Shown here one piece after another: positions 6,059-11,677 of a stretch of DNA of 64,000 nt; the first letter of the stretch is position 1; each line of letters starts with the position of its first letter. The stretch is from assembly GCA_001823065.1 (NCBI GenBank), contig MHTJ01000003.1, forward strand, positions 106,869 to 170,868, read 5' to 3'. The translations under genes were made by a program, and so were the position numbers. The notes beneath the pieces were generated by a model. The model was given only the letters and a program-made list of their open reading frames with translations, was not told where the DNA came from and did not search any database. Source of the DNA: Candidatus Vogelbacteria bacterium RIFOXYD1_FULL_44_32. GTDB lineage: Bacteria > Patescibacteriota > Minisyncoccia > Phycocordibacterales > XYD1-FULL-46-19.

Positions 6059-6811
6059 ATGACCACCCAAAAATTTTCCTCTACTGGCAACTTTGGTAAA
6101 TTGGCTGATCAATATAAAGTCGGTCGTAAAGGGGTCCCCGAAGAAGTACTGGATTATCTATGGTCCCATATTAAAAAATCAAAGCCGATGATTCTGGATG
6201 TTGGTTGTGGGACTGGCTTACCCAGTCGACAGCTCGCTGGGCGTGGTGCACTGGTGACGGGAACAGATATTTCTCCGGAAATGATTAGAGCGGCGAAAGA
6301 GAACAGCCAGGAAAATATCTCTTATCTTGTAGCTTCCACTCAAGCTCTACCTTTTCCCGATGAATCATTTGATATTGTTACTTCTTTTAGTGCTTTTCAT
6401 TGGTTTACTGATACCAAGTCTACAAAGGAGATGAAGTGGGTACTAAAACCTGGTGGCCCGATTTTTATTGTAAATAAAAATGATATCGGAGATTTTAGTC
6501 AGGGCTATCGATCTATTTTCCGCCAATATATGACCGAGGATCTCCCTCGTATTAAAAATGGATATAGCCCTGATCAAATCCTCCAAGAAGCGGGTTTTGG
6601 TGATATAAAAAGGACAGTATTTCCGGTGTCTGAATTTTTTACCATAGAGCAAGTTATGGATTACTTTCAGTCGGTAAGTGGTTGGAACTTAGTTCCGCCA
6701 GAGTCTAAGAAAGAAGCCCTCGAGTTACTAAAGGAATATGCGCATGGAAGAGCGGAAAATGGAGTAGTAGAAAGAAAATTGGAGATTATAACTCAACTTG
6801 GATTCAGATAG
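6059..6811 (+). CDS. class I SAM-dependent methyltransferase
   Basis: ILDVGCGTG motif I plus downstream acidic and aromatic motifs. Confidence 0.75.
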   Translation: MTTQKFSSTGNFGKLADQYKVGRKGVPEEVLDYLWSHIKKSKPMILDVGCGTGLPSRQLAGRGALVTGTDISPEMIRAAKENSQENISYLVASTQALPFPDESFDIVTSFSAFHWFTDTKSTKEMKWVLKPGGPIFIVNKNDIGDFSQGYRSIFRQYMTEDLPRIKNGYSPDQILQEAGFGDIKRTVFPVSEFFTIEQVMDYFQSVSGWNLVPPESKKEALELLKEYAHGRAENGVVERKLEIITQLGFR

Positions 6812-6889: not shown

Positions 6890-9800
6890 ATGAGCTCCGA
6901 AAAGGTGAAGGTTGATTCAAATGCCGATGAGCATGAGCCCACCAAAGAGGGTGAACTTTTTCTTGAGACTGAAAACCAAGACAGGGACAAAATTGTCTTC
7001 AATCAAAAAAAGGACAGAGAGCAAGAAGAGCAAGAGGAGCGCTTGCAATATTTGGCCGATCAAGCCGAAGAAGATTTTCATCAGCTAAAACTCCAAGATA
7101 TAAAAGACAAGCTGTTAAAAAAAGAAGAACCACTACCTGATATTGTAAAAGTCCCCAATCTACAGTCAGTAAGGCAAGAACAAAAAACGGCCAAGAAAAG
7201 TTTTCAACAAAAAATCAAGGACAAAATGGTTGATACTGTGCTTGGCAAAGACTATCGCAAAGAGTCAGCCTGGATTTATTATCTGGAAAAGAATATTCCG
7301 GTTAAAAAGTATATTAGGGAATCTATTGCTGTCAGCGACGGTGGCGCGGAGGCGGTTATTGCTAAACATCAGGCAGAGGAATACGAAGTCACCGATGATT
7401 ACGTTATCCATATGGGTGAGGAGCCGACCCGCGAGATTTCCTTTGCCAAAGAGATGCCATATGTTATGGCTAAACCACAAAATGAGTTTGACCGGGGCGA
7501 CCAAGATAAATTGAGATCGTACTTACATCTGCGCCACGATCCAGTAGAAGTGACCGAATTGTTGAAGCTAGCGGGGCGAGAGGTTTTTGCAAACAATTTT
7601 GTAGAACATAATTACTATTTTGGCAAAACAATGCGGGAACTTATTGATACCCCACATATTGTGGAGGTACTCCAATGGCTTATTCAGGTGGGGGTTACGT
7701 TTGACTATATTTATGACAGCTATTTAGAAAAACTTTGTTCTTCACCGTATGTAGAAAAGCTGACACCACAGCTCGCGTCAGCCGTCAGGGCTACCGTAGG
7801 TGGGGAGACCAAACATCTTATGTATATGCTCCCGGACTGTCTTGACCGGAACATTTTTGAGGGTGAACATGCGGGCGAGGATTTTCAAATTATCCGTAAA
7901 TTTGGGTTTGAACTTTTTGACAAGTTAGACGAAGTCGGTTTGTTGGGGGAAGCCAGAAAATTGGTGGGACAAGGGATATTTAAGATTGAGAAATTATTTG
8001 ATGAATTTAAGAGTAAAAATTTTTCTGGTAATAATGACTCACAAGCTCGACTGGAAACCTTTGCGAACATTATTAATTCATCTGCGCTACAGTCTCTGGA
8101 AAAAGATGAAGGTGCGATGGCTATAGCTAAAAAACTTCACCGCTTGGTAGGGATACAAATTGAACCAACGGATCCCGATTTGGAAAAACTAAAAATATTG
8201 GAGACAGACCCTACGGCCATGGCGGTGGCCGGTGTTTTAAATAGACTATCTGGGGCAGACCACTTTTTTGGTGATCTTGATGATTTTGTCAAAATTATGG
8301 GTGATAAAAGAGCGGTTGAGTCTTTGTGCGACGAAAAGGCTATTGATTTTGTAAGCAGGTTTATTAAGCAGTACCACTATCGCTTGGGACTGTCCGACTT
8401 TACCCCTCCTTATAGTATTTTCGATATTCCAAATCAGTTAGACCAAGAAAAATTACTGGCGGCCGACACAGTGGCTTTATATGAGAAACTTCATACTTTG
8501 GGCTACAACCTAAATTTGTGCAAGTTGGATGTTTTTATGGGTATGGTAGAAAACAAAGATCAGTGGCAAGAAATTCTGGCCGATGATATTTATACTGAGC
8601 TATTGCGCTCGATTCTAAAAAAATCCAGTCTTGAGGACATCAAGGACGTTCTTCTGATAGAGCAGGTGGAGGCCAAGCTCTTGAACCAATTATCTACCGC
8701 CTTTGATTATTCAATAAACGAAGATTATGCCAAGTCGGACCGCTCCTATGTGACCGCTCTTCTTTCTCACCCAGAACAGATAGAGGCTTTGTTTGAGCCA
8801 CAGCGAATCGCCCTGATCAAGCACTTAAACAGACGGACGAGGGGTTTTGGTTATTATGTGGGCGGTTTCCACTTGAGGGAGCTTAATAGCTATATGAAAA
8901 TTCCGCTTGAAACTTTACGGATTTTTGAGCTTTTCGATAAGACAGACGGAAATACGGTTGGTTCTAGTGAAATTGACCTAATAAAACAGCTAGTTGGTTA
9001 TAAAAACGAAGAAATATTAAAGGCGGTTTCAATATTGGAAAATTTATTACTAGTAGAAAAAAGTAACGGACCGTCATCTGGGTCAGAAAAATTTAAATTT
9101 CGACTTGAATCAGATAGTCTGCGAACCGTGCTTGAAGTATTGCAAAATGGTTTTACCGTTACTGATTTGCAAAAATTACAAGATTTCTGGCTCAAGAAAT
9201 ATGGCGACAGTTACGGGCGGCATTATACGCTGGAAGACAAGCAAGTAAAAGCCAGTAGGGATATTTTGCAATATTTACCACAATTGGTGGCCTTTGAAAA
9301 AGATGAAGCTAATCTGGAGGCTATTTATCAAGAAATTTCCGAGTATCTTGGCTCATTTCGAGGGGATCTTGACCTTTTTACGGTAGATAAGATAGTCAAA
9401 ATCCGTGACATCGGACTACTGGAGGTGTTTCGAAAAATAAAAGATGACCAACGGGTTGTTCAATTTGTTTACGCTAATGTAGATAAGTACTCAGAGATCC
9501 CCCCAGAAAAGATTGAAGACTATATTTCGGTTATCATCAAAATTAACCAGTCACCGTCTCAAGAAATTCAACGATTGAAAAATAGTTTGATGGGAGAAAT
9601 TATGGCGACCAGTGACCCAGTGGCGGCCTATGACAAAATTGAACAAGTTTTTGTCAAAAATAATCTTCCACTGGTCGGTAAGGTATATAAAATATTTGAG
9701 ATTATCCACCCGGCGGCGGTACTGGCTCAGCAAGTTAAAAAATGCCCCAGCCCAGAACTAAAAAAGAAGAGAGGCCGGGCGGTGCAGGCGACATTTCTTA

Positions 9801-11677
9801 GTGATTTACTGCAGGTCCATATTGACTCGGCCAATCGGTCTTTGCGAGACTATTTGGAAGTTTTAGCTTTAGGAGAAGATGTTTTAAACCAAGCCGAAGA
9901 CGAAGGGTTTGACTCACTCCAAACAGAAGATGAGCAATTACTGAAGGCCGTATTTGCCAAACTGCGAACCTTGTTTGAGGTTTCCCAGTTGGGTTCTTCG
10001 GCCGAGGTTGGTCCCCTTGCCGACCCAGATCTTCAAAATCAATATGAAAAGTTAAAGCAAAGTTTGAAAGTTGGACCAGGACAAAAGATTACCGACCGAA
10101 TCACCGATATGTTTTTGCGCCCGATTGGCGCCCGGACAATGGGCGAAGTTTTGGAGCGGATGAAGTCGGCTAAAGAGCTAGCCCACCAGCGCAATGTTGA
10201 AGCAGTCCAGCAAGCTGACCACGGTTATGTAGAAGTGGCACCGGGGGACCTCTTGAAAGGGGTAAGAGCCGAGTTTATTGAAGATATTTTACAAAATGGT
10301 TCGGTGGCCAAAGAATTTTTAGGGGGCAAAGCCGAATCTGACGCCACCCCTTTTGATACAGACGTAAGCCAAGTGTTGGTCGAAGATTTTACGGAGACGG
10401 ACAATGTGCGCACTAGATTTGCCGGAGCAATCGGAAAGTCTTTGGCCACTGGTTATGGCCCTCTTCTCTTCTTAGTCAAAAATCATGGGCAGTTTTCCGC
10501 TGGGCCTAACAAAAAAGCGCAGTACGAGCTTTTTGGGGCTGGGGGTGGCGATTTGGCCACTGCTCGTCATTGTGGAATTAGGACTGGTTTTGCCACTACC
10601 GAAGTCGATGCCATTATTGCCAATGATCTGGAGGGCAAAGTACCAGATAATTTGTATTTTGAAATCAGCCAAAATGGCTATTATATACCGGTGGCCGATC
10701 GGACAGGGAAAATTATTTTTACACCTGAAATGTATGACGAGAAAAGAAAAACCTTTGCTGGGTTAGATAGGTTTGACGGACCACCGCTTGCGGTAGCAGA
10801 GACAAAGCCAGAAGAGGCTCATTATAATGAGATCCAAAAAACTAAGAAAAAATCTTACGAATCTCAGACTTTATCACAAGAGGCGATGAGGGTGATAAGC
10901 GACTCGGTCCGCGAGACCTTAAGCGAGGCGGGAGTTAACCTGAAAAATCGCTTTGACACGGGAATTTTGGGTGCTCGTCTCGAAGACATTGGTTCAACTG
11001 GTCGTGGTACCAATCTTGATACCCATTTTGACTTTGATTTAATGCTTAGTCTCGACGCTAATGATTTTCCTAAGGCCGAAACGATTGCCCAGCAGCTGAT
11101 ATTAGCTTGTCGTTATGAAGGCAATGACTCCCATGTGGATCAAGGGGGTTACTATCAATTAAGACTAAAAGGGGTTAGGGAAATAGCCGGCCGAACTTTT
11201 GCTGAGCCAATTGATCTGGATATCGGTTTCAATCGCAGTGCCGATGTTAAGATTTTTGGTACCCATGAAGCTATTAAAGAAAGATTGGATTGGATCGAAG
11301 AGACCGTGGGTGCAGATACTAAAAATGAAGTGGTGGCTAATATTGTTTTAGCCAAGGAAGTTCTAAAAGCTGGTCATTGTTATAAAAAATTAGAAGATGG
11401 TGGTATGGGTGGTGCGGGTGTAGAGAATTGGATTTTAAAGCATGAAGGAAATTTGATTAAAGCTTTTGAAGCGTTCCTGACCGCGGCCACCGATGACAAA
11501 GGGCAGGTGGTTTCCCTGGAAAAATTTAGAAAGAATTATGACATTACTGATCCGGGAATAAATACTAAATATCTAAAGCATGATAATTTTATCTTAAATC
11601 TAAAGCCAGAGGGCTATCAAAAAATGGTGACAACCATAACTGATTATTTATATATTGGCGGGTTTTACACTGCCTAA
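6890..11677 (+). CDS. giant 1595-aa protein with a C-terminal Pol-beta-superfamily (CD-NTase/OAS/MNT-like) nucleotidyltransferase domain
   Basis: Uninterrupted 4.8 kb ORF. Near residue 1367 it has IGSTGRGTNLDTHFDFDLML (GS-x-RGT...D-h-D) and, about 60 aa later, IDLDIGF as a third acidic strand. The N-terminal 1300 aa have no motif I recognise. Confidence 0.7.
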   Translation: MSSEKVKVDSNADEHEPTKEGELFLETENQDRDKIVFNQKKDREQEEQEERLQYLADQAEEDFHQLKLQDIKDKLLKKEEPLPDIVKVPNLQSVRQEQKTAKKSFQQKIKDKMVDTVLGKDYRKESAWIYYLEKNIPVKKYIRESIAVSDGGAEAVIAKHQAEEYEVTDDYVIHMGEEPTREISFAKEMPYVMAKPQNEFDRGDQDKLRSYLHLRHDPVEVTELLKLAGREVFANNFVEHNYYFGKTMRELIDTPHIVEVLQWLIQVGVTFDYIYDSYLEKLCSSPYVEKLTPQLASAVRATVGGETKHLMYMLPDCLDRNIFEGEHAGEDFQIIRKFGFELFDKLDEVGLLGEARKLVGQGIFKIEKLFDEFKSKNFSGNNDSQARLETFANIINSSALQSLEKDEGAMAIAKKLHRLVGIQIEPTDPDLEKLKILETDPTAMAVAGVLNRLSGADHFFGDLDDFVKIMGDKRAVESLCDEKAIDFVSRFIKQYHYRLGLSDFTPPYSIFDIPNQLDQEKLLAADTVALYEKLHTLGYNLNLCKLDVFMGMVENKDQWQEILADDIYTELLRSILKKSSLEDIKDVLLIEQVEAKLLNQLSTAFDYSINEDYAKSDRSYVTALLSHPEQIEALFEPQRIALIKHLNRRTRGFGYYVGGFHLRELNSYMKIPLETLRIFELFDKTDGNTVGSSEIDLIKQLVGYKNEEILKAVSILENLLLVEKSNGPSSGSEKFKFRLESDSLRTVLEVLQNGFTVTDLQKLQDFWLKKYGDSYGRHYTLEDKQVKASRDILQYLPQLVAFEKDEANLEAIYQEISEYLGSFRGDLDLFTVDKIVKIRDIGLLEVFRKIKDDQRVVQFVYANVDKYSEIPPEKIEDYISVIIKINQSPSQEIQRLKNSLMGEIMATSDPVAAYDKIEQVFVKNNLPLVGKVYKIFEIIHPAAVLAQQVKKCPSPELKKKRGRAVQATFLSDLLQVHIDSANRSLRDYLEVLALGEDVLNQAEDEGFDSLQTEDEQLLKAVFAKLRTLFEVSQLGSSAEVGPLADPDLQNQYEKLKQSLKVGPGQKITDRITDMFLRPIGARTMGEVLERMKSAKELAHQRNVEAVQQADHGYVEVAPGDLLKGVRAEFIEDILQNGSVAKEFLGGKAESDATPFDTDVSQVLVEDFTETDNVRTRFAGAIGKSLATGYGPLLFLVKNHGQFSAGPNKKAQYELFGAGGGDLATARHCGIRTGFATTEVDAIIANDLEGKVPDNLYFEISQNGYYIPVADRTGKIIFTPEMYDEKRKTFAGLDRFDGPPLAVAETKPEEAHYNEIQKTKKKSYESQTLSQEAMRVISDSVRETLSEAGVNLKNRFDTGILGARLEDIGSTGRGTNLDTHFDFDLMLSLDANDFPKAETIAQQLILACRYEGNDSHVDQGGYYQLRLKGVREIAGRTFAEPIDLDIGFNRSADVKIFGTHEAIKERLDWIEETVGADTKNEVVANIVLAKEVLKAGHCYKKLEDGGMGGAGVENWILKHEGNLIKAFEAFLTAATDDKGQVVSLEKFRKNYDITDPGINTKYLKHDNFILNLKPEGYQKMVTTITDYLYIGGFYTA

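Follow-up and report, generated by a model that had tools for sequence, protein, structure and literature searches.

DSR2 and CapRel are immune proteins in which sensor and effector form a single protein. Very large proteins with several enzyme heads, ADP-ribosyltransferases (ARTs) among them, have been described as the polyvalent proteins of phages and conjugative elements and linked to conflict (Iyer et al. 2017, PMC5512222). KptA-type ARTs and Pol-beta nucleotidyltransferases (NTases) are also paired in phage RNA-repair systems, as separate proteins (PMC7824862).

The protein reported here (OHA58486.1, UniProt A0A1G2QD46), annotated as a 'hypothetical protein' of the tiny groundwater bacterium Candidatus Vogelbacteria RIFOXYD1_FULL_44_32, is a member of a large family that we found named or described nowhere, including in the literature on ART–NTase fusions and on giant proteins of this type in Patescibacteria. 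No described family was found that joins a Lys-type ART-fold domain to a CCA-adding/TUTase-like NTase. The giant protein resembles DSR2 and CapRel in combining an NAD+- or nucleotide-using enzyme with a large, fast-evolving region, and in being a single gene of patchy, mobile occurrence, but it has two predicted enzyme heads rather than one, and no sequence or profile relationship was found (the PADLOC search was empty). The likeness to polyvalent proteins lies in a version carried as transposon cargo and in the extra enzyme domains of the largest relatives; unlike polyvalent proteins, the family is mostly chromosomal, none of the usual polyvalent Pfam domains was detected, and no relatives were found in phages, plasmids or IMG/VR.

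The giant gene and its variable N-terminal region

The gene lies in a 64-kb window, the whole stretch of DNA that was analysed, and is divided at its 5' end as follows:

6890..11677, + strand: giant-protein gene, ATG start, 1595 aa
6890..7219, + strand: charged, acidic, Gly-poor N-terminal stretch, aa 1-110 (composition, sequence)
6890..9451, + strand: fast-diverging N-terminal region, aa 1-854 (domain, repeat and membrane-segment searches; alignments of relatives)

The single 4.8-kb ORF described in the earlier note is real. The chance of 1595 stop-free codons, calculated from the base composition of the window, is ~9e-43, and the same 1595-aa protein was called on contigs of separate assemblies (ENA ERZ27254749 and ERZ28563784, Logan SRR2090173) and by NCBI, so that the ORF is intact and without a frameshift. 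A foreign origin by base composition was considered and set aside, the GC content of the gene (0.42) being just mildly low against that of housekeeping genes (0.45-0.48).

The first 100 residues contain 27 D/E, 17 K/R and a single Gly, in agreement with the acidic N-terminus noticed previously. Neither a signal peptide nor a membrane segment was detected (the top 19-residue hydrophobicity window is 1.27), self-BLAST gave no internal repeats, and scanning in 300-aa windows gave no Pfam match along the protein. The whole protein returned zero Pfam, NCBIfam, PADLOC, PHROG and PDB-sequence matches, and PDB sequence searches with the whole protein, the C-terminus and a 96-sequence family profile returned chance-level matches alone. 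The word-based homologue search with the full 1595-aa query returned only the protein itself, probably as a result of the charged N-terminus filling the candidate list, and succeeded with the C-terminal module as query. Nearly all matches of relatives in the exhaustive search start near aa 855, and aa 1-854 could be aligned in only 3 of the 243 collected relatives (P0002, P0003 and P0021, at 20-23% identity).

A giant polymorphic toxin, the alternative offered in the earlier note, fits this pattern poorly. Polymorphic toxins have a conserved N-terminus and a variable toxin tip, whereas this family has a constant C-terminal 730 aa and variable N-termini; no trafficking domain or conserved immunity gene was found, and the giant protein has no recognizable signal peptide, LXG, RHS or similar domain.

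The conserved C-terminal module and its two folds

The conserved unit is formed by the last ~730 residues, which aligned in all of the best 150 family matches, and consists of a helical domain, an ART-fold domain and an NTase. It is thus far longer than the ~230 terminal residues emphasized in the earlier note, and its most conserved block is the ART-fold domain upstream of them. The statement that the first 1350 residues contain no nameable motif held for profile libraries but not for structure, which places a helical domain at aa 855-1108 and an ART fold at aa 1119-1294. The analysis establishes the module architecture of the giant protein, its two folds and, across ~318 relatives, near-invariant putative active sites. 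The AF2 model (m00a05927f0c3) has a pLDDT of 92.2 and a pTM of 0.91. The features of the module are:

9452..10213, + strand: all-helical conserved domain, aa 855-1108 (conservation, AF2 model)
10244..10771, + strand: ADP-ribosyltransferase-fold domain, aa 1119-1294, the family's most conserved block
10256..10261, + strand: K1123-G1124 in the first ART-fold strand, where classical ARTs have H/R-G (alignment of relatives)
10337..10363, + strand: S-D-x-T-P-x-D-T-D loop and strand, aa 1150-1158, near-invariant, candidate second ART motif
10568..10591, + strand: H-x-G-I-R-T-G-F strand, aa 1227-1234, with invariant R1231-T-G (alignment of relatives)
10823..10927, + strand: long helix into the NTase core, aa 1312-1346 (model helix 458-492)
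10973..11236, + strand: Pol-beta NTase catalytic core, aa 1362-1449, with G1368-S1369, D1381-x-D1383 and D1444
11261..11656, + strand: helical PAP/OAS/CCA-'neck'-type domain, aa 1458-1589, with K1489, Y1498-K1499 and GG.GG.G.ENW

The helical domain corresponds to the helices at 2-253 of the model (pLDDT ~90) and carries the family motifs S-x-S-x-E, F..NNLP.VGK, SP.L and DLL....S.N.S. Structure searches with the module model returned no neighbour that covers it.

In the model, residues 1119-1294 adopt the split beta-sheet ART fold, with Tpt1/KptA and DarT as the closest solved structures. Lys occupies position 1123 in 314 of 318 aligned relatives (98.7%), with H in 2 and R in 1, and G1124 is kept in 293 (92%); the strand of the giant protein itself reads K1123-G1124-V. 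Lys at the ART H/R position appears unusual, and its rare substitutes H and R are the residues of classical ARTs at this position. In an hhalign comparison of the ART profile with a small Tpt1 alignment (4 sequences, one of them validated separately as Tpt1), LLKGV...ILQNGS was placed opposite LyHGT...Il.dG, with the same spacing from K1123-G1124 to the next helix as in Tpt1, but this alignment was not significant (E 0.077, probability <1%). No match to the ART Pfam families was obtained with 76 ART-domain members at E<=10.

Seven residues of the ART-fold domain (K1123, D1151, T1153, D1158, E1213, H1227 and R1231) are 98-100% conserved; of these, D1151, T1153 and D1158 are at ~100%, R1231 is found in 321/322 relatives, and H1227 and E1213 in 315 each. 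E1238 is found in 278 and is otherwise D or Q. The segment at aa 1150-1158 is read as the candidate second ART motif because it is placed after helix 1. The R1231-T-G strand, E1213 and E1238 are candidate catalytic or NAD-binding residues, judged from conservation. Candidates for the second and third ART catalytic positions are D1156-T-D1158 and either E1213 or E1238, all of which are conserved, though their placement is insecure. Compared with the NAD+ lobe of Tpt1/KptA and with DarT, the giant protein has Lys in place of His and a ~45-residue insertion that carries the invariant E1213, H1227 and R1231, and the N-terminal winged-helix RNA lobe of Tpt1, with its catalytic Arg-His...Arg, is absent.

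The IGSTGRGTNLDTHFDFDL motif at aa 1367-1384 (nt 10988-11041) contains the GS, RGT and D-F-D elements pointed out in the earlier note, with six residues rather than eight between RGT and D-F-D. It matches the expected h-G-[GS] turn followed by [DE]-h-[DE] (IGS at 1367-1369, D1381-F-D1383). The third carboxylate, D1444, lies in IDLDIGF (aa 1441-1447, nt 11210-11230) on model strand 581-595, 61 residues after D1383, in line with the distance of about 60 given in the earlier note. G1368 is conserved at 100%, S1369, D1381 and D1383 at 98% (~318 relatives), and D1444 in 309/312. No Pfam, NCBIfam or PADLOC match was found for the last 295 aa, the last 495 aa or the whole protein, even at E<=10; a 'faint' NTP_transf_2 match is precomputed for one relative (P0206). 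In the model, the alpha-beta core superposes on known Pol-beta members, and the best Foldseek matches are the CCA-adding enzyme, Cid1 and PAP; a further structure comparison gave scores of 13.3 for the CCA-adding enzyme and 10-11 for TUTase/PAP. The C-terminal Pol-beta NTase proposed in the earlier note is therefore borne out by the fold and by a G-S motif and three carboxylates that are 98-100% conserved, in an intact ORF. None of the three outcomes that the note gave as refuting it was observed.

The archaeal class I CCA-adding enzyme (A. fulgidus; PDB 4x4n, 1r89, 1uet) shares its head and neck domains with the giant protein. Its body and tail, which bind the tRNA acceptor/T arm, are absent, with 217/436 target residues aligned: the giant protein ends after the neck, ~150 residues past D1444. 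The two NTases are 14-16% identical, with no Pfam/NCBIfam match, and that of the giant protein, unlike the CCA-adding enzyme, sits behind an ART-fold domain at the end of 1595 aa. Cid1, TUT4/7, GLD-2, URT1, PAPalpha and the inactive DZF proteins NF45/NF90 are also structurally related, but these are eukaryotic, lack an ART partner and have no detectable sequence similarity to the giant protein.

The earlier note had likened the protein to a fused CBASS-like system, that is, a cGAS/DncV/OAS-like signalling NTase which is tethered to a huge sensor and makes a nucleotide second messenger. Many members of that group have the motif in its GS-x-x-RGT form, and a variable sensor-like region with a conserved enzyme would fit such a layout. 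However, CD-NTases, DncV, cGAS-like enzymes and OAS are not the closest neighbours, being outscored by the CCA-adding enzyme and TUTase/PAP; no CD-NTase/SMODS Pfam, PADLOC or other defence profile matched; and no effector, receptor or other CBASS component is conserved alongside in 80 loci. A messenger would thus have to be received by the ART or helical domain or go without a receiver of its own, and we consider a CBASS-like system very unlikely.

Some Pol-beta-fold enzymes AMPylate proteins. The two heads could likewise modify proteins, either the cell's own regulators or the proteins of another cell, the ART ADP-ribosylating side chains and the NTase AMPylating as GlnE and DrrA do. This appears very doubtful, given that nucleic acids are the substrates of the top-scoring neighbours of each domain and that the NTase is accompanied by a PAP/TUTase-type helical domain, which holds the RNA 3' end in those enzymes.

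Distribution, mobility and gene neighbourhood

At E<=1e-3 the exhaustive search returned 993 cluster representatives, of which 638 remained at E<=1e-30, which corresponds to at least 638 clusters at 50% identity. Among 185,579 GTDB species genomes, 409 loci were found, nearly all of them single ORFs of 1.2-6.2 thousand aa. Members occur in Patescibacteria, above all in uncultured ones from groundwater, and in gut Bacilli/Clostridia; most copies are chromosomal genes in Patescibacteria. The N-termini sort into many unrelated groups. Polysaccharide deacetylase, beta-lactamase-like, PRTase-CE and methyltransferase domains are added in the largest relatives, and a subgroup has a C-terminal membrane anchor. 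No relatives were found by tblastn of 50,697 INPHARED phage records and 72,556 PLSDB plasmids or by a pattern scan of IMG/VR.

In Firmicutes, a split version (1015 aa + 550 aa), in which the helical domain remains with the upstream 1015-aa protein, is cargo of a Tn4451-like mobilisable transposon with a serine recombinase, Mob_Pre and TnpV. Copies of this transposon have differing right-hand flanks; the element is common in gut metagenomes, and an identical 550-aa protein was found on >170 contigs. Tn4451-type elements classically carry resistance genes, and one relative fuses a beta-lactamase-like domain, which might point to antibiotic inactivation by an Arr-like ART and an ANT/Lnu-like NTase. 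This is extremely unlikely: Arr-like and ANT/Lnu-like matches lie far down both structural lists, proteins of 1.2-6 thousand aa with hypervariable N-termini are unlike resistance enzymes, and the family is at its commonest in groundwater bacteria.

No conserved neighbour gene was found, the most widely shared one being present in 7/80 related loci, and no conserved downstream ORF (>=40 aa) or immunity gene was found in ~85 loci. Neighbours within the window include a SAM methyltransferase, DsbA, VKOR and RNR; in general, the neighbouring genes are mostly housekeeping genes and do not form defence islands. The upstream SAM methyltransferase (6059-6811) was rejected as a functional partner, as just 2 weak methyltransferase matches were obtained in 80 loci; one 4079-aa relative has a fused Methyltransf_11. 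A small helical ORF lies upstream of the family gene in 14 related loci, and the idea that it is fused into the N-terminus of the giant protein was dropped for want of a significant match. The annotated neighbourhoods showed no partner of DarG-like or macrodomain type.

Housekeeping or stress RNA repair would have the Tpt1-like head clear or cap phosphorylated ends and the CCA-like head rebuild 3' ends. It is in keeping with Tpt1 and the CCA-adding enzyme as closest solved structures, with the combination of KptA and Pol-beta NTases in phage RNA-repair systems and with the often housekeeping neighbours. We nevertheless regard it as quite unlikely, since the family is patchy (the 409 loci above), is carried by a transposon and has a huge hypervariable N-terminal region, the Tpt1 RNA lobe (Arg-His-Arg) and the CCA-enzyme body and tail are absent, and the 80 loci have no conserved RNA ligase or end-healing partner close by.

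Proposed function and possible delivery

The conserved tail, with its ART-like domain and RNA-tailing-type NTase, suggests a double-headed modifying enzyme of microbial conflicts. We hypothesize, with a probability of roughly 0.35, that the giant protein is a two-headed ART and NTase modifying enzyme which acts as a self-contained sensor plus effector in genome conflict, with nucleic-acid ends as targets. The members are giant, usually soluble cytoplasmic proteins made up of a fast-diverging N-terminal region and the constant ~730-residue C-terminal module. Both domains would be active enzymes: the ART head would use NAD+ to attach ADP-ribose, and the NTase head, of class I Pol-beta type, would add nucleotides from NTPs to a free 3'-OH without a template. 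The two would share one substrate, most likely RNA ends (tRNA-like) or another nucleic acid, as the solved structures closest to the ART head (Tpt1/KptA and DarT) and to the NTase head (the CCA-adding enzyme and TUTase/PAP) are all of enzymes that work on nucleic acids. When, or on what, the two heads act would be set by the variable N-terminal region, and a triggered protein would, in the version we favour, shut down translation or nucleic-acid function. A conflict role is preferred over housekeeping because of the patchy mobile distribution, the transposon carriage, the single-gene layout and the extra enzyme domains.

Several observations weigh against this proposal. The nearest structure does not fix the substrate, and proteins and small molecules are also among the targets of Pol-beta NTases and ARTs. 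The neighbourhoods are rich in housekeeping genes, with no defence profile match and no phage, plasmid or IMG/VR relative. The Lys at the ART H/R position, the insecure ART motifs 2 and 3 and the missing Tpt1 RNA lobe count against the ART head, as do the missing tRNA-holding body and tail domains of the CCA-adding enzyme against the NTase head.

The main alternative shares this biochemistry and differs in the site of action: a T4SS would export the protein into the cell of a host or recipient, which the two heads would then poison or reprogramme. Patescibacteria would use their own T4SS for this, and the Firmicutes transposon, with its Mob_Pre relaxase, a helper conjugative system. The giant gene has a VirD4/TrwB-type coupling protein as its neighbour in Saccharibacteria (L014/L015), in one Paceibacterota MAG (L022) and in a further MAG (L029), and a coupling-protein fragment lies 3 kb from it in L056. 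In L014 and L022 both genes are on the same strand and are separated by a short ORF whose sequence overlaps the start of the giant gene. A Fic gene is also adjacent in L014, with a weak Fic match near the L034 locus, and one relative fuses the cell-wall-type polysaccharide deacetylase and beta-lactamase-like domains. The range across Patescibacteria and Firmicutes parallels that of the monoderm-type T4SS, which has been reported in Patescibacteria without conjugation components (PMC12102498).

However, a coupling protein is present in just 3-4 of ~85 loci and absent from the 64-kb window, and Patescibacteria have about two orphan coupling-protein genes per genome, one of them dispensable for epibiotic growth (PMC12102498). 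Chance adjacency is roughly estimated at P ~0.003-0.03. No secretion signal was recognised in the giant protein, the C-terminal membrane anchor of one subgroup fits a resident protein better, and a conserved immunity gene was not found. Delivery is therefore possible but unlikely. It is less probable still, and distinctly speculative, that the giant proteins are the first recognised Patescibacteria T4SS effectors; we know of no substrate of this T4SS. Injected into host bacteria, they would mark the ends of RNA or DNA with ADP-ribose and untemplated nucleotides, a composite mark not described so far, and the product of one head might be extended or capped by the other.

Whether the two-headed enzyme acts in its own cell, as we propose, or in another, a 'hypothetical' giant has become a defined family of several hundred clusters, with two putative catalytic centres that hardly vary, in a group that makes up a large share of bacterial diversity and in which very few large lineage-specific proteins have an assigned function. 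The ART and NTase folds, as modelled, predict NAD+ and NTPs as co-substrates. The split 1015 + 550 aa version provides a smaller protein to work with and prompts the question how gut Firmicutes profit from carrying it. If the T4SS-effector reading is true, the epibiotic life of Patescibacteria and a widespread transposon of gut Firmicutes would both be tied, through this family, to a new nucleic-acid modification chemistry. Be its role immunity, attack or repair, the chemistry of this giant family is likely to be new.

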